Assembly: GCA_964016885.1 (NCBI GenBank)
Contig: OZ024742.1
Span: forward strand, 240,932,001 to 240,996,000
Direction: 5' to 3'
Source of the DNA: Eledone cirrhosa
Lineage: Eukaryota
Length of the DNA stretch: 64,000 nt
The notes beneath the pieces are model-generated. The model was given only the letters and a program-made list of their open reading frames with translations, did not search any database and was not told where the DNA came from. The position numbers and the translations under genes were made by a program. Shown piece by piece: positions 23,576-35,100 of this stretch; the first letter of the stretch is position 1; each line of letters begins with the position of its first letter.

Positions 23576-23676
<101 letters not shown>

Positions 23677-24147
23677 TAAACGGAATAGAAAATGCTGACA
23701 GATTGTTCACAGTTGAACAATGGTTTAATTAGGAATAAAAGAGTATTAGTGATTGTATGGGTTAGTATTCAGTTGTGGTTTTAAGTTTTTAAGTTTTTAC
23801 CGGTTGCGCATTTCTAAATGCTTTTCAAAAATAATTTTGAGATAGAGTGTCCGTGCTGTTTGCTCTGATCTGATTAGTTTTGGGAATTCTACCTGTTTTT
23901 ATGTTAAAAATGTGGCTCCAGCGTCACTTTGGTGTTGCAAAAATTCTTGTGGTCAAAACAATTTTGATTGGTCGGTAGAGGTCATGTGAATGTAAAAAAT
24001 TGATTTTGCGCCAAGACTGTTTTTATGTTAAAAAAGTGGCTCCAGCAAAAATTCTTGTGGTCAAAACAATTTTGATTGGTCGGTAGAGGTCATGTGAATA
24101 AAAAATTGGTTTTGCTCCAAGATTGAGAAATGACTCTTTCACAACAA

Positions 24148-24235
<88 letters not shown>

Positions 24236-24330
24236 TAGTAGTAGTAAGGTGTTCCATGTTGTGATAATGGTTAGCAGCGATGTGTGTCAAATGGCTATTA
24301 AGATAAGTATGTGTGTGTGTGTGTGTGTGT

Positions 24331-24393
<63 letters not shown>

Positions 24394-24572
24394 GCAGAGT
24401 AATTCGTGGTGGCAGGGATGGTCAGTAAGAATGTGTCTGAAAGCAATGGGGGGTATTTTAGCATGTCAAAAGATATTTTTCAGCTTTTGTCTTATACGGA
24501 GAAGTGCGTGTGTGTGTGTGTGTATATATAAGTCTCTTTGTATGTTGATGTACGCGTGTGTATGTGTGTGTG

Positions 24573-24614
<42 letters not shown>

Positions 24615-24939
24615 AGGGTGGGTGGACCAGTATTTTTTCCCCCTGGTAAAATGGTGTACATTATTCGAGTTTTTCAGTAAAATCGGTTCTCTTAATAGAA
24701 CATCAAAAATCTTAACAATAAAAGGTGTGAAATGATATTCACTATATATACACATACATATATTCACTATATATATATATATACATATATACACATATAT
24801 ACATATATATATGCACATATATTTCTTTGTGTTGCACCATAGAGCATGTGTGTTTACGTATGTCATTGTGTTTATATGTGGGTAGAGATGTGTGCTGATG
24901 TAGGTATGTATGTTGACGTGTGTATGTTGTGGGTTCATC

Positions 24940-27264
24940 TTAGGGAGAAGTGTTTAGACGGGGTCCGTATTTGTTAATGAAGTAAGATTCCTTGCTGATG
25001 CGCTGGGTGTGGGTGGCATTATCTTTAAATTTGTAGAGGGGAAAGATTCTGAAGTTGGGGTGATTTTGGGCGGCACAGGTATCAATGTGTTCACTCAGTG
25101 GTATTTTCCTGTATTCCCGTATTTTGATTTGGGATCTATGGACAGTCATGCGTTGGCGGAGGCTGTTTTTGGTCTGGCCTATGTATTGTTCTCGACAACC
25201 TGAACAAGTTAATACATATATTAGATTTTCTGATGCACATGTGAAATTGTGTTTTACTATAAAACGTTGTCCATCTTTGAAATAGAATTCCAAACCCTCT
25301 ATTAGGTTGATGCAAATGCCACAGTTGGGTCTATCGCATTTTTTTACTGTGGGTTTCGTTGTTGTGGTTGGCAGTACTTTGGCATGTGTTAAGATGTTTT
25401 TCATTGACTTGGATTGTCTTTTGCTCTTTATGATATCGTGTGTTCGTAGAATTTGGTTCATTATATGGTCCTTTTTCAATACAGGGATGTTCTGGAGGAT
25501 GGTGTCAAAGGCCTCATTGTTGAGGGGGTTGTGTGTGGAGATGTATGGAAGAGCTTTTAGTTTTGGTTGATTTACTTTAGGGTGTCTAAGGTCCTGGGTA
25601 CTGAGTTTTAGGGCACGTTGGATTCCATTGTCAATTAGTGATGCAGGGTAGTCCCTGCCTATGAGTGTGTCCTTTAGTTCTTGTAGCCGTAAGTAGCAGA
25701 TGTTTTTATTGGAGACTATAGTACAGATTCTCTTGGCTAAGTTGTAGGGAATATTAATTTTAACGTATCTAGGGTGGCAAGAGTTGAAGGGGAGATATTG
25801 CTTGGAGTCTGTGGGCTTGTAGTATATGTCTGTTTCTATTTTTTTGTTATGGATCTTAATGAGGATGTCGAGGAAGGGGAGTTGTTGATGGCTGTATTCC
25901 ATCGTGAAGTTAATATGTGTGTTGAGCCCATTTATAAGGGTGTGAAATTCTTTAAGTTTTTCGATGTTTTCGTGCCAAAGGATGAAGCAGTCATCTAGAT
26001 ATCGCTTCCAGTTCCTTTCAATGTGTAAGTGGAGGGTGTTTCCAAATTTGTTTAGGACTTTAGTGTAGAGGGTGATTTCCAGGTATCCCATGACTAGGTT
26101 GGCATAAGTGGGGGCTGTTTTCGTTCCCATAGCGGTTCCAGATTTCTGCCTGTAGGGTTTGTTATTGAAAATGAAGTAATTGTTCTCCAAGATAAATTTG
26201 AGTCCCTCTATCACGAATTCTTTTTTGATGCGTTGTGGGAGTTCATTGTGGAAATTATCCAGCCAGAATTGGATAGCTTCTATTCCTAGGTTGTGGGGGA
26301 TGTTGGAGTATAGGTTGACTACATCGAACGTCACTAGTAGGGTTTGTTCAGAAAGTGGTATATTAGGGAGGTGATTGAGCATATCTAGGTCGTCCCTTAT
26401 ATAGCTTTTGATGTGCTTGAGGAAGGGTTTGAGAAGGGTATCAATGAAGTTGCTAAGACGGTGCGTTTCGCAAGCGGGGCCTGCTATTATAGGTCTTAAT
26501 TTGAGATCATTGGGTGAGGGGACATTGATGACTATGTCTGTGGCCTCCTTGCATGCCTTACTTATTGATTCGCTTTTATTTACTTTAGGGATACCGTAGA
26601 AAAGGCTGGATTTACTTGTGAAGTCTGTGATGAAGCTGAATTCCTTGTTAGTGAGTCCTTCTTTGTATTGGTTGATTAGAGTTTTTAGGTTTCTCATAAT
26701 TTTCTGTTGATTGTAGTGTTCAGCCTTTTCGTAGTATGTTTCGTTTTCCAAAGTGGAGAGCGCTAAGTTGATATAGAATTCTGTCTCCATTAGGACTACT
26801 GTACTCCCTTTATCAGCCTCTTTAATTGTAATGGTTCTGTCGGTTTTTAATCTATTTAATTCTTCCCATTCTTTCTTGTTGAGGTTTGGCTTGTGTTTTT
26901 GTCTGTGCAAGTGTTGGTAAGGGAAGTTTGTGATGTGTTCACATAATTCGTCCAGGATTTTATTTCTACCTTTTGAAGGGGTGTAATTGCTTCTATTTCT
27001 GGCTAATGATTCATCCTCATTGTACTGGTCGAATAGTTGTTCACTAAGTCGTAACTTTCTACAGAAGTCTGTGATGTCTACCTTCATTTCATAGTAGTTA
27101 GGACGTAGTGGGGTCGGTGTGAATTTAAGACCTTTGGAGAGTAAGTTGATAAGGTTGGGTGTTGGTTCTGCACTAGTAAGATTGATAACTTTTATTACTA
27201 TCGGTTTCTCCTCCCTGTCTTGTGTTATTTTGTTTGCCTGTATCTGTGTGCTGTGTCTAAAAAA
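24940..27264 (-). CDS. PLE reverse transcriptase-GIY-YIG endonuclease ORF2 (first ATG 27087; frame open from 27294)
   Basis: Motifs LLSKGLKFTPTP, IKEADKG, FYGIPKVNK, LRPIIA, FDVVNLYSNIP, GTAMGT, RYLDD, FLD, C-x4-C-x2-C linker and NLIY..C..C..QYIGQT..LRQR. No stops. Confidence 0.95.
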   Translation of the reverse strand, partial: FFRHSTQIQANKITQDREEKPIVIKVINLTSAEPTPNLINLLSKGLKFTPTPLRPNYYEMKVDITDFCRKLRLSEQLFDQYNEDESLARNRSNYTPSKGRNKILDELCEHITNFPYQHLHRQKHKPNLNKKEWEELNRLKTDRTITIKEADKGSTVVLMETEFYINLALSTLENETYYEKAEHYNQQKIMRNLKTLINQYKEGLTNKEFSFITDFTSKSSLFYGIPKVNKSESISKACKEATDIVINVPSPNDLKLRPIIAGPACETHRLSNFIDTLLKPFLKHIKSYIRDDLDMLNHLPNIPLSEQTLLVTFDVVNLYSNIPHNLGIEAIQFWLDNFHNELPQRIKKEFVIEGLKFILENNYFIFNNKPYRQKSGTAMGTKTAPTYANLVMGYLEITLYTKVLNKFGNTLHLHIERNWKRYLDDCFILWHENIEKLKEFHTLINGLNTHINFTMEYSHQQLPFLDILIKIHNKKIETDIYYKPTDSKQYLPFNSCHPRYVKINIPYNLAKRICTIVSNKNICYLRLQELKDTLIGRDYPASLIDNGIQRALKLSTQDLRHPKVNQPKLKALPYISTHNPLNNEAFDTILQNIPVLKKDHIMNQILRTHDIIKSKRQSKSMKNILTHAKVLPTTTTKPTVKKCDRPNCGICINLIEGLEFYFKDGQRFIVKHNFTCASENLIYVLTCSGCREQYIGQTKNSLRQRMTVHRSQIKIREYRKIPLSEHIDTCAAQNHPNFRIFPLYKFKDNATHTQRISKESYFINKYGPRLNTSP

Positions 27265-28340
27265 TGGTTGGGGTAGAGGGGTTGTCTGCTGATGTTAAGT
27301 GGTCTCGTGTGTTTGTTATATTCCTTGTTGTTGTAAAATGTGGTTCGGGTTGGTGGTTGTAGATTGAATGGGGTGTTCCTGTACTGCGAGTATGGGTGTG
27401 TGTTTCTATGTGCCATGTTGTATTGTGGTGTTATAAGTGGCCTACGTTGTTGGTTGTATCGTGTGGTGTGGGTTTGTTGTGTATTGTGGAAGCGAGAGTT
27501 GAGAAAATGGTAATTACCTTGCTGTCCCCTTGAAGCGGGGAAGTTGTTACATCTATCATGGCGGTGGTATCTTTTCCCTATGTTTGACGATGAGGGATCC
27601 GCGTAGTAGTTGAGTGATTTGGTATGGTGTCTCCTTGAAGGGGGAAAGTTGTAAATGTCATTCTGGGGGAGATGATTTCTTGGGTTTTGGTTCCTTCTTA
27701 TGGTAGCGAGGTTGGGAAGTACATCTTCGGTGTGGTGCTTCCTTCTTCGTTTGTTAGAGGCTTGGGGGTTTGAGAAGTTGTTGTGCGGTTCAGTTATGGG
27801 TTTTCCTATTTTTATGAACGGGTTATTGAAGCTGTAATCCGTTTGCAAAGTCGATTCATAGTGTAGGAACAAAGCGGCACTTTTTTCCCAGCGTTGAAGG
27901 GATTTCAGTTCTTCTCTGTTGCAGTCCCCTTTCCATAATTTGGAGATCTCCTCTACCTTGGGGCCTTCAGTTTTGTTGTTGATTTCCAGGAGGATCTCTT
28001 CATCGATGGTTTTGATTTTTTCCTCATTTGTCTGGGCCCTCAGTTTAAGAAGTTCAATTTCTGTCTTCATTTTTTCCAATGCCATTCTTTCCCTAAGGTG
28101 TCTTTGAGGTTCGGGTTCATTTGGAATGGACTTTATTTGTAGTTTACGGGGGAGAGTTAGAGGGGTTGAGTTGAGCCATTTTTCATATATCTCTGCTTTG
28201 TTGTGATTTTGTATCATCTTCCAGAATGAGAACTTTCTGTCTCTGAGGGATTTGTTCCATTTTGGAATTGTTCGAATTTTCATTTTGTGTGAATCAATCT
28301 CACATGGTTCTTCGTTGGTTTTTCCTGGGTTTTTCCCCAA
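27225..28340 (-). CDS. PLE upstream ORF1 (coiled-coil-like region plus N/Q/R/H-rich low-complexity tail), 5'-truncated by the inverted arm
   Basis: 371 open codons, heptad-like RERMALEKMKTEIELLKLRAQTNEEKIKTIDEEIL. The annotated start coincides with the inversion junction. Confidence 0.75.
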   Translation of the reverse strand: MGKNPGKTNEEPCEIDSHKMKIRTIPKWNKSLRDRKFSFWKMIQNHNKAEIYEKWLNSTPLTLPRKLQIKSIPNEPEPQRHLRERMALEKMKTEIELLKLRAQTNEEKIKTIDEEILLEINNKTEGPKVEEISKLWKGDCNREELKSLQRWEKSAALFLHYESTLQTDYSFNNPFIKIGKPITEPHNNFSNPQASNKRRRKHHTEDVLPNLATIRRNQNPRNHLPQNDIYNFPPSRRHHTKSLNYYADPSSSNIGKRYHRHDRCNNFPASRGQQGNYHFLNSRFHNTQQTHTTRYNQQRRPLITPQYNMAHRNTHPYSQYRNTPFNLQPPTRTTFYNNKEYNKHTRPLNISRQPLYPNHFLDTAHRYRQTK

Positions 28341-28982
28341 CTTCAGAATCTTTCCCCTCTACAAATTTAAAGATAATGCCACCCACACCCAGCGCATCAG
28401 CAAGGAATCTTACTTCATTAACAAATACGGACCCCGTCTAAACACTTCTCCCTAAGACGAACCCACAACATACACACGTCAACATACATACCTACATCAG
28501 CACACATCTCTACCCACATATAAACACAATGACATACGTAAAAACATGCTCTATGGTGCAACACAAAGAAATATATGTGCATATATATATGTATATATGT
28601 GTATATATGTATATATATATATATATATATATAGTGAATATATGTATGTGTATATATATATAGTGAATATCATTTCAAACCTTTTATTGTTAAAATTTTT
28701 GATGTTCTATTAAGAGAACCGATTTTACTGAAAAAATCGAATAATGTACACCATTTTACCAGGGGAAAAAAATACTGGTCCCCCCCCCACACACATATAT
28801 ACACACACACATACACACGCGTACATCAACATACAAAGAGACTTATATATACACACACACACACACACGCACTTCTCCGTATAAGACAAAAACTGAAAAA
28901 TATCTTTTGACATGCTAAAATACCCCCCATTGCTTTCAGACACATTCTTACTGACCATCCCTGCCACCACGAATTACTCTGC

Positions 28983-29039
<57 letters not shown>

Positions 29040-29145
29040 ATCTTAATAGCCATTTGACACACATCGCTGCTATCCATTATCACAACATCGAACACCTTAC
29101 TACTACTACTACTACTACACACACACACACACACACACAGACACA

Positions 29146-29198
<53 letters not shown>

Positions 29199-29515
29199 TT
29201 GTTGTGAAAGAGTCATTTCTCAACCTTGGCGCAAAACCAATTTTTTTATTCACATGACCTCTACCGACCAATCAAAATTGTTTTGACCACAAGAATTTTT
29301 GCTGGAGCTACTTTTTTAACATAAAAACAGTCTTGGCGCAAAATCAATTTTTTACATTCACATGACCTCTACCGACCAATCAAAATTGTTTTGACCACAA
29401 GAATTTTTGCAACACCAAAGTAACGCTGGAGCCACTTTTTTAACATAAAAACAGGTAGAATTCCCAAAAATAATCAGATCAGAGCAAACAGCACGGACAC
29501 TCTATCTCAAAATTA

Positions 29516-29553
29516 TTTTTGAAAAGCATTTAGAAATGCGCAACCGGTAAAAA
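29516..29553 (+). ncRNA. Variant minimal hammerhead in pLTR (mirror 23794-23831 -)
   Basis: ttt TTGAAAA gcatt taga aatgc GCAAC CG GTA aaa: U3-A8 core plus GAAA>GCAA change. Confidence 0.5.
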
Positions 29554-29744
29554 CTTAAAAACTTAAAACCACAACTGAATACTAACCCATACAATCACTA
29601 ATACTCTTTTATTCCTAATTAAACCATTTTTCAACTGTGAACAATTTGTCAGCATTTTCTATTCCGTTTACCAATATATAATAACTTGTGTGTTACACCT
29701 CTATTCTTTTAACTATATATATATACATATATATATATTACAAC

Positions 29745-30486
29745 ACTATTCACAATAACATCCCACTACTAAAACAAAACCCAAGAATGAAAAAAGCCCT
29801 TGAAACACACAAAATAATCAAAAGCAAAAGACAACCAAAATCACTGAAAACATTACTCACCAATGCCAAATTACCTACCACAAACCCACAACCAAGTATC
29901 AAAAAATGTGGTCGCTCTAATTGTGGAACCTGCACTCACCTCATTGAAGGCAACACGTATACATTTAAATCAGGACAAAATTTTACTGTAAAAAATCACT
30001 TCACTTGCTCATCAAAAAATCTAGTTTATGCCATTAAATGTAAAGGATGCAATGAAGATTATATAGGACAAACTAAACTCACACTCAGAAACAGAATGAC
30101 AGTTCATCGCCAACAATTACGAGATCCAACCACGAGACAGATACCACTAAGTGCACATCTAGACATTGGCGCAAGTAATAAGACACCCAAATTCCAAGTC
30201 TTCCCATTTTACCTTTGCGCTAACAACACAACAGAACAAATACGAATAAATAAGGAAAATATGTTTATTCAAAAATATAGACCAACATTAAATAAGATTT
30301 AATATACATTATGTCAACACCATAATATGACATACACACACACACATAACACCTTCTACTTTAGAAAATAAAAACCCGAACTAAATAAACCTTAACATAC
30401 GTTTGCACTGGCAATACAACAGCAAACACGAAAAAGTCAGGAAAATATGTTCATTCAAAAATATTCCTACTAAAGGAATCACTTTC

Positions 30487-32119: not shown

Positions 32120-35100
32120 TACGATATTAAATAAATGGAAACTATATTTATAAAACCATATCTATTTCATTATATATATTTCAGGGATATCATATTAACA
32201 ATATGTTATGCCTTCCTCAGACAAAATAGAATATAGACAGTTTTATAAATAAATAGATTTGACATACCTTTCAACATCGACTTGCATTTGAAAAGTTGAT
32301 TTGGCAGTGAAAATTGTAAACAGAAAGAAAGAAAGAAGGAAAGAAAGAAAGAAAACGAAGAAAAAGAAGAAATGCATGCAACTAAATAGAGAGATGGAAA
32401 GATAGATAAAGAGAAGAACTTCATGTAAAGACACAGAGAGAGATATATAGAGAGAGGAAATAGATAGAGATAGATATATATAGAGAAAAGTAGGTAGTTG
32501 AACATCCGTTGAATGACGTATCAATGATACATTTATTTATTTATTTATTTATTTAGCTCTAGTATTAATGTAGGAGAGATATATGTGGTTAGGAGAGAAA
32601 CCAGCCGTTATATATAGAGAAAAAATGAAAAGTAACCAGACATAGGCGAGGCAGAATTTAAAAACCCTATGTTTCAATGTAGAAATATTAGTTTGTATAA
32701 AAACAGGCACTATAATGTAAATATCAGTATTCATGAATGAGACACGTATCTATAATGTGTGAAAAGTAATGATCTTATGTCTAGTTTTAAAAATTCATAT
32801 GTTTATATGATAACTACAAACATCGATGTGAATTTACGTGATCAGCTCTGCAAACTCCTATTTCACACGGAGAACATTCTCATTGTGCTATAAAAATTTA
32901 AGTATACATATATGTGTATATATACACATATATATAGAGTCTATATTAATTTTAACAATACTATTCTTGTCTTTACTCTACATGATTATCTATCAAGCAG
33001 AAATAGAGAACAGATTTCAATATATTAATAAAAATATCAGAAACAAAAACAAAAAATAATAATAAATAAATAAAACAGAAAACTAAAAAATATTACATAT
33101 TAAAAATAAAAATATAAAAAATATTAAAAAATATTAAAAAAATTATTAAAAAATATTAAAATAATAAAAATAAAAATAAAAACATAGTATGCCACGCAAA
33201 TCGACCACAAAGATCAACCCTTCAAAATTAATTGCCAAGTTCATTATAAGCATCAGAGTCGAAAACAGATAAAACTAAAAATTATTTACCAAATCCTGTC
33301 TAGCAGAAATCATTTCAAAAGTTTAGGATACCGATTTGGTCTACATATGTTCTTATATTTAATATAGAAGTTTATCTAGTGTAACATTTATTCGATATAT
33401 TTGGAGCATCAACTTTTAGGGTAGTTTAATTTTTCATGAAGAATGTTTAAAATAAAAATAAAAAGAAGAATAAAAAGAAGAAATCGAAAGATTTATCGGC
33501 TAGTTTCATAAATAATTACAAATCAAACTAAATATACTACATTTTAAATTTAAATTTATATTTAAAAGTTGAGTTCAATCTATGTTTGCAGCAACTGAAT
33601 AAATTTGTCCGTAGATTAAGGGAATTTTTAGATTTTAGTATAAAGAATATCTCCTTCGCGCAGAGGTCACATGTCTCAGAGGATGAATTAAAAGGAATCC
33701 CTCTTGAGACTATATTCCAAGCCGTCGAATATCTAACGTTATCATGCCTAAGTTGCCAGAGTACGCCTGATAGTGCTGTTGAAGATTTTTTGCTTGGATC
33801 TGTGAAAGAATTCTTGTGGTTATTATAGCGAAGTTTAAATTCCGTCGATGTGGAACCAACGTAGTTAAAAGAATTAGAGTCCGTTTTAACATTACAGTTG
33901 TATATTATATTTTTAACTAAGCAGTTGTTATTTAACGGGCATTTAGATCTATCTCTACAGTTACATTTGTTAACTTGTATATTATTTATGCTATTATCGC
34001 TAGGTTTTAAGTTCCTATTATTTATTCTATTAATATTTTGTGCTAAATTTTTGGTGGATGAGTAGGTTAATTTTATAGTATGTCTATTGAAAATTGAGTG
34101 ATACCTATGTGTTCTAGGGAAGCGATTATCAAGAGCTTTAAAAAATAGTTTAGCGATGTGGGTTTTAATGTTTAGTGAGAAAGGGGGGGGGGGGGGGGCA
34201 AACCATATTATGTTCCTAGTTCTATTTCTTTTTTGGCTTTTGGAATTATTGTAATGCTTTCTATTATAGTTGTTAAGGTTGTGGCCGTAATTAAAATAGC
34301 TGTTATTTTGTTTAGTTTGTCTATCATTATCTATGTACATAATTTTATCACTATATCCTGCTCTAGCTAACGCTTCATTGTAGTACTGGGCTTTTTCGTC
34401 GAAAATCTTTCTATTAGACGAGATTCTAGAGATACGTTTTTGAACAGAGTTTACTATAGTATTTTTAACAGATCTAGGGTGGTTAGAGTTAAAGCTGACA
34501 TAGTTTAAGTTTTCATTCAACTTGTGAAATGGATAGTGAAGACGTGTTGAGATTTAATGTTATATCTAGGAAATTGACTATTCTATGGTTATTCTCAATT
34601 TCTATTTTTAGATTAAAGTAATTAAAAAATTGTGTAATTTGTTTTCTTTTTCTATTTAGTTCAGAGTTATTATTATCAATAAGTAAAAGCATGTCATCTC
34701 TATATAAACCTCCAGTAGTACCAGGTATTTTCCTATGCAGCGAATTGATTAAAAATAAGCCCACAAGGTCAGTTACCTGAGCTGAGTCGGATGATCCCAT
34801 AGTAATGTCAAAATTGCTATCTCTATCTGCTCTGGTCCATAGTTGGTCATTAAATTCTATCAATGTTTTCCTAGCCGATAATATAATGTGCATTTCATTG
34901 CTAGTTAGGTCTGTATGTTTGAATGCGTAATTTAGTGCCTTATTTAGTAGATTAGGGGTAATAGAAGAATAATAGTTAGCAATATCAAGTTGAATAAACT
35001 TATTATTATTGTTATATTTAATTTGCTTAAACCACTCAACAACCTCTCCAGTTCCCTTCCACAAGCTCAGGTTAGGTAAACAATCCAAGTTTTTAATTTG

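Follow-up and report, generated by a model that had tools for sequence, protein, structure and literature searches.

A conserved in-phase slippery heptamer joins two overlapping ORFs in a branch of endonuclease-bearing Penelope-like elements and points to -1 frameshifting

The window, a stretch of 64,000 nucleotides of the Eledone cirrhosa contig OZ024742.1 (positions 240,932,001 to 240,996,000), contains a young, high-copy endonuclease-bearing Penelope-like retrotransposon (EN+ PLE). Its ORF2 (24940..27294, minus strand) runs for 784 aa from stop to stop and encodes a reverse transcriptase (RT, aa 265-451) and a GIY-YIG endonuclease (EN, aa 691-780), with RVT_1 and GIY-YIG both scoring above the Pfam cut-offs, as in other EN+ PLEs. 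A CX4CxxC linker (about 25338-25312, minus strand, from the translation) precedes the GIY-YIG domain and CCHH lies within the EN, the features that mark the Neptune/Nematis type (linker CX2-5CxxC). ORF1 (27225..28331, minus strand) consists of a helical, coiled-coil-like core and a low-complexity tail rich in N, R, Q, and H, and ends in NHFL followed by 10 codons and TAA. The 3' pLTR region (23667..25060, minus strand) carries a (TA)n microsatellite at its end, and an inverted 5' copy (28335..29715, plus strand) lies beyond ORF1; the paired arms (23667-25060 and 28335-29680) are 88 to 100% complementary, and the 5' copy extends about 35 nt past the end of the 3' copy. ORF1 meets the inverted pLTR at about 28331 and is truncated there to 368 of 436 aa, having lost its first 68 codons and with them the ATG. 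Sister copies carry the full ORF1 of 436 aa, and 5' truncation is seen among them too, so that pLTRs and truncation are both present as in EN+ PLEs. The first-pass annotation had called the element uninterrupted; this copy is not complete. The element departs from the single-ORF organization of EN+ PLEs in having two overlapping ORFs, in the window's own family (A), in a second family (B), and in 15 metagenome loci. A search of the pLTR for a hammerhead ribozyme gave no Rfam match at an E value of ≤1 and no canonical core by a simple pattern; a degenerate form may be present.

We then re-read the letters of the junction on the minus strand, and all the coordinates given in the first-pass annotation (the stops, the heptamer, the ATG, and the overlap) matched. 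ORF1 and ORF2 overlap by 70 nt in the -1 phase. The overlap contains a heptamer, T_TTT_TTA (27258..27264), in X_XXY_YYZ phase (codons CAT TTT TTA GAC, 27266-27255), which is the predicted -1 shift site and, as had been claimed, stands in frame; it is also the sole X_XXY_YYZ site in the overlap. TTTTTTA occurs once in the 3.4-kb coding part, where slippery-type heptamers in any phase number 13. The -1 frame is closed by a TAA (27295..27297) 10 codons upstream of the heptamer, and the earliest in-frame ATG of ORF2 is at 27087, which bears out the earlier reading that ORF2 has no AUG ahead of the RT N-terminal motifs. Downstream, a spacer of 30 nt (27228..27257), unstructured by folding, separates the heptamer from the ORF1 stop TAA (27225..27227), which is the 11th codon past TTA and the predicted position of a ribosomal roadblock. 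Folding found no hairpin downstream of the heptamer (z of -0.12 and 0.00, and of +0.86 in a second run), in agreement with the first-pass annotation; z in family A ranged from about 0 to +0.9. The absence of a stimulatory hairpin in family A means that the frameshift efficiency may be low. Missing from that annotation were the 5' truncation, the clade-wide occurrence of the site, and its conserved 10-codon distance to the ORF1 stop.

To place the junction within the genome, we took 60 loci of family A (54 places after removal of 6 duplicates, with the window and L048 then subtracted), about half of them chosen by the ORF1 protein and thus independently of the junction. The six Ts were kept in all 52 non-self copies spanning the junction, and TTTTTTA in 51; the identity among copies of family A is about 99%. 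A frame longer than 1100 aa was found in a single one of the 150 ORF1 matches (L056), where a +C private to that locus precedes the T run and accounts for it. The heptamer and the -1 phase are thus retained among sister copies, and a fused ORF is not the family state. Family B, whose ORF1 and ORF2 are 43% and 55% identical to those of family A, has the junction AAT CAT TTT TTA GAC in the -1 phase and without an ATG in 19 of the 20 loci fetched, with diverged flanks. Genome searches with the distant queries P0002 and P0041 returned families A and B only, as judged by position and frame length.

The same arrangement was found in more distant elements. Of the metagenome loci that carry an ORF1 homologue, 15 could be read across the junction; all 15 were in the -1 phase, 13 of them with T_TTT_TTA (L093 has T_TTT_TTG and L090 T_TTT_CTA), so that the phased heptamer first noted in the window is conserved clade-wide; 14 of the 15 had no ATG ahead of the RT motif. 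The -1 frame begins exactly at the heptamer in L094, L096, L100, and L143, and ORF1 terminates one codon past it in L096 and L099; in these cases the overlap therefore hardly exceeds the heptamer itself. Among ORF1 homologues of at least 320 aa, 65 of 78 had FL within the last 45 aa (shuffled sequences, mean 7, maximum 15; preceding window, 2). The residue before FL was never K, Q, E, M, or W (0 of 65, against a background of 20%; P, 4e-7), which fits T_TTT_TTA, since codons for these residues cannot end in T. In a FastTree RT tree, all the placeable loci with an ORF1 (14 rows) fell in one 26-row branch with a support of 100; the tree has no named Neptune references, and placement as Neptune or Nematis rests on the linker and CCHH features. 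The heptamer is thus in phase, within the overlap, and conserved, as for a -1 programmed frameshift site, while the stem-loop that would follow after a spacer of 5 to 9 nt is lacking in family A, and of the 17 junctions just two, L094 and L136, gave a z below -2. At the level of sequence, these comparisons confirmed that two overlapping ORFs joined at a conserved slippery site are general for this EN+ PLE branch.

The reading that we favor, with a probability of roughly 0.87 on sequence evidence, is that a -1 frameshift on U_UUU_UUA yields an ORF1-RT-EN fusion in a clade of EN+ PLEs. The tRNA-Phe and tRNA-Leu would slip back one base in tandem on the heptamer, and the products would stand in a ratio like that of gag to gag-pol, with abundant ORF1 protein and a minor ORF1-RT-EN fusion. 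The competitor named by the first-pass annotation was that ttttttAG serves as a splice acceptor; RT-EN would then be made from spliced mRNA and ORF1 from unspliced. Of 17 DNA junctions, 14 do have an AG adjoining the T run, and 47 of 65 proteins have a G after the heptamer (background, 19%), leaving an AG, so that dual use with splicing is possible. Upstream in family A stand TTAAC, which resembles the branch-point consensus, and a run of pyrimidines. In another RT branch, 7 of 7 loci (L135, L142, L144, L151, L159, L161, and L165) carry a pyrimidine-CAG just before the RT N-terminal motif, and PLEs are reported to retain introns (PMC8557442). However, the AG is absent in L143 (TTTTTTA-TAC) and L093 (TTTTTTG-TGG), and 18 of 65 proteins have a non-G codon after FL (Y, S, W, P, N, H, L, or R) and so cannot have an AG there, which argues against an acceptor. 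None of the 17 junctions has the CAG of the seven controls, an acceptor needs no fixed phase relative to ORF1, and splicing from the best donor-like sites in ORF1, judged by eye, would not bring ORF2 into frame. At the DNA level it is the phased heptamer, not the AG, that is conserved across the clade, and we consider splicing very unlikely.

Translation of ORF2 by termination and reinitiation at the codon overlapping the ORF1 stop, the heptamer being incidental, is highly unlikely. That codon is ATA in the window, where it overlaps the stop as A-TAA, GTG in family B, and ATG in some relatives, and the database relatives of ORF2 P0003, P0004, P0005, and P0007 are annotated with Met at the aligned position. 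These Mets, however, may be gene-caller starts on an NTG left by a change of the stop to TGG; where the spacer has 10 codons (eight DNA junctions), the codon reads ATA, CTA, or GTA and in no case ATG, ATG variants are absent from the element's own genome, and reinitiation leaves the conserved phased heptamer unexplained. RNA polymerase slippage on the T6 run, adding one U and so fusing the ORFs in some transcripts, would give the same product with no need of RNA structure. Slippage of this kind ignores codon phase, yet T_TTT_TTA stands in 15 of 17 DNA junctions and FL, not FF, in 75 of 79 proteins; T6 is, moreover, short for polymerase slippage, and we regard it as extremely unlikely. The 99% identity within family A implies a recent common ancestor and would suit a junction that arose by mutation in a dead master copy, with a helper of the single-ORF type mobilizing that copy in trans. 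That explanation is already largely refuted: the same junction occurs in the 55%-identical family B and in distant metagenome elements, and no fused homologue was found among the best 150 of the 756 clusters (at 50% identity) that make up the ORF1 family, the longest having ≤553 aa. A fused homologue was also sought among longer proteins and not found, which is weak evidence.

HIV-1 gag-pol and alphavirus 6K/TF use -1 sites of the U_UUU_UUA type. The PLE junction shares with them the heptamer, the phase, and the logic of fusing a structural ORF to an enzyme, but it belongs to a non-LTR retrotransposon instead of a virus, and a stem-loop is missing from family A; the likeness to HIV-1 drawn in the first-pass annotation therefore extends to the heptamer and not to the stem-loop. 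PLEs with an ORF1, a frameshift, and a pseudoknot are probably of the EN-minus Athena/Terminon type. In these, too, a coiled-coil ORF1 precedes the PLE RT across a frameshift, whereas the present element has an endonuclease, is genome-wide, and in family A lacks a downstream hairpin. For some PLE types, ORF1 frameshifts as such have been described before; the legend of Fig. 1 in PMC8557442 marks types with ORF1, frameshift, and pseudoknot. Neptune and Nematis resemble the present element in their RT with a C-terminal GIY-YIG, CCHH, and CX2-5CxxC linker, and in their pLTRs with a 5' inversion and (TA)n target; they are described as single ORF (PMC8557442), whereas here a conserved ORF1 of about 430 aa is joined in the -1 phase. 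PLEs have been said to come in two layouts, one ORF that combines RT and EN or a pair of ORFs without EN (PMC6431247), and a killifish Neptune to have two non-overlapping, ATG-called ORFs, with an ORF1 of no known similarity and no frameshift mentioned in the available portion of the report (PMC12602865). A slippery site in EN+ PLEs was not found in the literature searched, a scope outside which subscription papers and Repbase reports fell. For the whole branch, the picture of EN+ PLEs would change from one ORF to a pair like gag and gag-pol, and in reconstitution of the retrotransposon the natural RT-EN would probably be an N-terminal fusion.

The distance from the heptamer to the ORF1 stop was examined next. 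It is exactly 10 codons in 27 of 79 homologues and below 10 in none (unfiltered set, 27 of 86, with 1 below 10), while spacer identity is only about 10%. The null probability of a distance of 10 is 0.037; alternatively, 6.6 cases are expected from the later stop hazard. The 10-codon class is clustered, with 22 of its 27 members in one 31-row subtree, so that binomial P values overstate independence; the spacing class changes 11 times on the ORF1 tree, and counting 11 origins instead gives a P of 0.005. A constraint on an aliphatic residue of ORF2 as the cause is disfavored, since the 11th codon in the 31-row subtree is a stop in 22 and Trp in 4, with no other codon starting with T, and members with 10 codons differ in their distance to the RT motif. 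Twenty codons, the distance in 5 of 79 homologues and in family B, looked like a second peak, but this was rejected as a sign of trisomes: in the B lineage the stop is created by the codons that encode the conserved N-terminal motif of ORF2.

Ten codons is the spacing of collided ribosomes, and a terminating ribosome may thus act as stimulator. Granted the frameshift, we tentatively suggest that a ribosome terminating 10 codons downstream, on the stop of ORF1, would stimulate it by a pause, holding the following ribosome on the slippery site; the window copy has this spacing and no hairpin. A minority of relatives have a conventional hairpin, instead of or besides the proposed roadblock. That a large EN+ PLE clade uses ribosome collision at disome length as a programmed -1 stimulator is possible but doubtful. 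Counted against it were the one-codon stops of L096 and L099, the 20 codons of family B, the longer spacers in 52 of 79 homologues, and the joint presence of hairpin and 10-codon stop in L098, L100, and L136. In SARS-CoV-2, a nearby 0-frame stop has been proposed to let the pseudoknot refold, and frameshifting falls with trailing ribosomes, which counts against the collision step (PMC8168617). The SARS-CoV-2 stop, however, is 5 codons off, while the PLE peak is sharp at 10, which is also a lower bound, and occurs without a hairpin as well. In the titles and beginnings of abstracts that made up the literature covered, no description of a programmed stimulator consisting of a terminating ribosome was found. 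If the collision proposal is true, the stimulator would be neither an RNA structure nor a bound protein, and RT output would be tied to the ribosome load on ORF1. The fixed 10-codon stop makes the question testable with a 60-nt reporter insert, and nature supplies controls in dozens of variants, some with a hairpin and some lacking one.

Finally, we searched for relatives of the ORF1 protein beyond its own family. At most 1 of 100 members matched any one Pfam family, PDB sequences gave coiled-coil or low-complexity noise alone, Foldseek against PDB and BFVD gave nothing at an E value of ≤0.001, and ESM Atlas gave no match. Searches of viral and metagenome contigs with ORF1, and of viral contigs with ORF2, gave no match either. 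ORF1 thus represents an unannotated but conserved helical family without a Pfam or PDB match, and its role may be structural, as part of an RNP. The model of the ORF1 core, built on the sister copy L038, is all-helical, with a mean pLDDT of 88.8.

The minus-strand Penelope-like element (PLE) in the window carries a coiled-coil-like ORF1, ending in a TAA stop at 27227-27225, and a 784-aa ORF2 (27294-24940) with RT and GIY-YIG domains (translation and domain search), which overlap by 70 nt in the -1 phase. A sequence scan located the heptamer T_TTT_TTA (U_UUU_UUA in RNA) in the correct phase at 27264-27258, the sole slippery-type heptamer in the overlap, while the earliest ATG of ORF2 lies at 27087, past the N-terminal motifs. 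All this agrees with the first-pass annotation, but the element it called uninterrupted is not: an inverted pLTR at 28335-29715 removes the first 68 ORF1 codons, so this copy is truncated. ORF1 has 436 aa in complete copies of the same family (family A). The 3' pLTR of the window element ends in (TA)n. The window also holds, on the plus strand at 29757-30302, a 3' fragment (endonuclease part) of a second PLE family (family B), adjoining the inverted pLTR across a short TA run, and, on the minus strand at 33537-34553, a 338-aa open frame resembling by eye the C-terminal part of a more distant PLE, from the thumb to a GIY-YIG-like end.

We then determined the state of the junction in other copies within the 3.0-Gb assembly. 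The family-A DNA search gave 1,615 candidates (40 scored, 99 to 100% identical; 30 fetched) and the ORF1-protein search 1,984 (150 scored, 30 fetched); the 60 fetched loci represented 54 places, or 52 once the window and L048, which has no junction, were left out. Older copies are under-sampled here, since the fetched ones were the best scoring. Six Ts were kept in all 52 and TTTTTTA in 51, which answers in the negative the earlier question of a private indel in the T run. An ORF1-ORF2 fusion occurred in 1 of the 150 scored ORF1 matches; this copy, L056 (G000:C1:238047374-238050763), has a 1183-aa frame and a private +C insertion upstream of the T run. Family B, reached via the 29757-30302 fragment, is a young two-ORF PLE with 25,332 first-look candidates, from which 150 matches were scored and 20 fetched, selected for long ORF2 frames. 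One was 5' truncated; the other 19 showed a 91-nt overlap in the -1 phase, the sequence AAT CAT TTT TTA GAC common to both families, no ATG, and, where intact, an ORF1 of about 400 aa. Identity between the families is 43% in ORF1 and 55% in ORF2, and the junction flanks have diverged.

A profile built from three ORF1 proteins matched 756 clusters, the best 150 of which were all at most 553 aa long. Phe-Leu, the reading of the heptamer, fell within the last 45 residues in 65 of the 78 homologues that were 320 aa or longer (shuffles: mean, 7; maximum, 15), in a tail otherwise unconserved around it, and in none of the 65 did the preceding residue have a codon unable to end in T. The best 79 of at least 455 metagenome relatives found with ORF2 included 16 with an ORF1 match; L095 starts inside the site and was left out of the junction count. 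Among the matches listed, all 15 remaining loci were in the -1 phase, with T_TTT_TTA in 13, T_TTT_TTG in one, and T_TTT_CTA in one, and L136 alone had an ATG ahead of the RT motif; the -1 frame began exactly at the heptamer in four, and ORF1 terminated one codon past it in two.

The two-ORF -1 junction with its heptamer is real and clade-wide. A phased heptamer of such distribution is the pattern that selection on a ribosomal slippery site would be expected to leave, and we put the probability of the predicted programmed -1 frameshifting, judged from sequence, at about 0.87. The T run and the adjoining AG could be read as a splice acceptor, which fits poorly; the codon after Phe-Leu is unable to start with G in 18 of the 65 homologues. 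Reinitiation on ORF2 and polymerase slippage on the T run also fit poorly.

Folding, with pseudoknots outside the model, found no RNA structure downstream of the heptamer in family A, in line with the first-pass annotation, which saw no obvious hairpin; by the same model, fold z was below -2 in only 2 of 17 DNA junctions, and a short hairpin was also seen in those of L098 and L100. The distance from the heptamer to the ORF1 stop is strongly non-random. In a filtered set of 79 homologues (length at least 260 aa; FL or FF among the final 45 aa; five entries excluded as core-truncated or off-target), it was exactly 10 codons in 27 and shorter in none; unfiltered, it was 10 codons in 27 of 86 and 6 in one. 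The null expectation for 10 codons is 3.7% if based on the +1-frame stops along ORF2, and 6.6 of 79 if based on the later stop hazard. Eight of the 17 DNA junctions, the window included, were at 10 codons, two at 1, and the others at 12 to 31. The 10-aa spacers are about 10% identical to one another. On a quick IQ-TREE phylogeny of ORF1 the class changed 11 times, with 22 of the 27 within one subtree; allowing for this shared ancestry, a P of about 0.005, from 11 origins, is more realistic than one of 1e-10.

A ribosome terminating at the ORF1 stop might hold the following one on U_UUU_UUA. We infer this capacity from the 10-codon spacing, the minimal gap of 10, sometimes 11, codons between collided ribosomes, and the enrichment in human cells of disomes whose leading ribosome sits on a stop codon (bioRxiv 2023.02.01.526718); in bacteria, ribosomes are known to queue behind arrested stop codons (PMC7544508). 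Against collision stand the longer spacers of most homologues, the one-codon spacer of two loci, the hairpins present as well in some 10-codon members, and the SARS-CoV-2 precedent, in which a nearby stop is explained by structure refolding and trailing ribosomes lower frameshifting (PMC8168617). The available text of a review says only that trailing ribosomes can change frameshifting (PMC8915115). Overall, collision-based stimulation of the predicted frameshift seems possible, though less likely than not.

EN+ PLEs (those with an endonuclease) are canonically single-ORF (PMC8557442), as the first-pass annotation had it; PLEs in general have one ORF if they bear the endonuclease and two if they lack it (PMC6431247). 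A fish Neptune element has two ORFs, with frameshifting unmentioned in the available text (PMC12602865), and the accessible parts of PMC5408684, PMC5718144, and PMC11494300 held nothing decisive. The Fig. 1 legend of PMC8557442, similar in its bioRxiv version, states that a frameshift with a pseudoknot can set ORF1 apart. That legend may already mention the frameshift for Neptune. Its frameshifted ORF1 with a pseudoknot is reportedly of the EN-minus Athena type.

Every ORF1-bearing locus whose RT was long enough for placement fell in a single RT branch (unrooted FastTree; 26 of 72 rows, with support of 100), and none of the listed loci of a second branch matched ORF1. Seven of the latter (L135, L142, L144, L151, L159, L161, and L165) have a pyrimidine-CAG acceptor-like site immediately before the N-terminal motif of RT, at the position of the predicted frameshift in the ORF1-bearing clade, which suggests an intron connecting RT to an upstream exon. 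Within the ORF1-bearing clade, two of three loci of one sub-branch (L101, L102, L104) carry an in-phase A_AAA_AAC in place of T_TTT_TTA just where the RT frame opens (L101:125-131 and L104:313-319), on contigs too short to reveal any ORF1; the slippery-site type has possibly switched there.

Sequence and fold searches returned no significant matches to ORF1. The N-terminal 250 aa of ORF1 from L038, a family-A sister copy, gave a confident all-helical predicted model (pLDDT, 88.8; pTM, 0.69), and the position of ORF1 and its basic disordered tail suggest that it may serve in an RNP or as a chaperone, much as LINE ORF1 or Gag does. The Mytilus gene model P0006 unites ORF1-like and ORF2-like sequence, apparently via a predicted splice, and such models may be mis-annotated frameshifted elements. 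Five junctions (L089, L090, L106, L112, and L114) share a short motif, AACCTAG, that follows the heptamer, and in three of these loci the tail of ORF1 contains the peptide DHNW, which may represent a lineage-specific RNA or peptide element.
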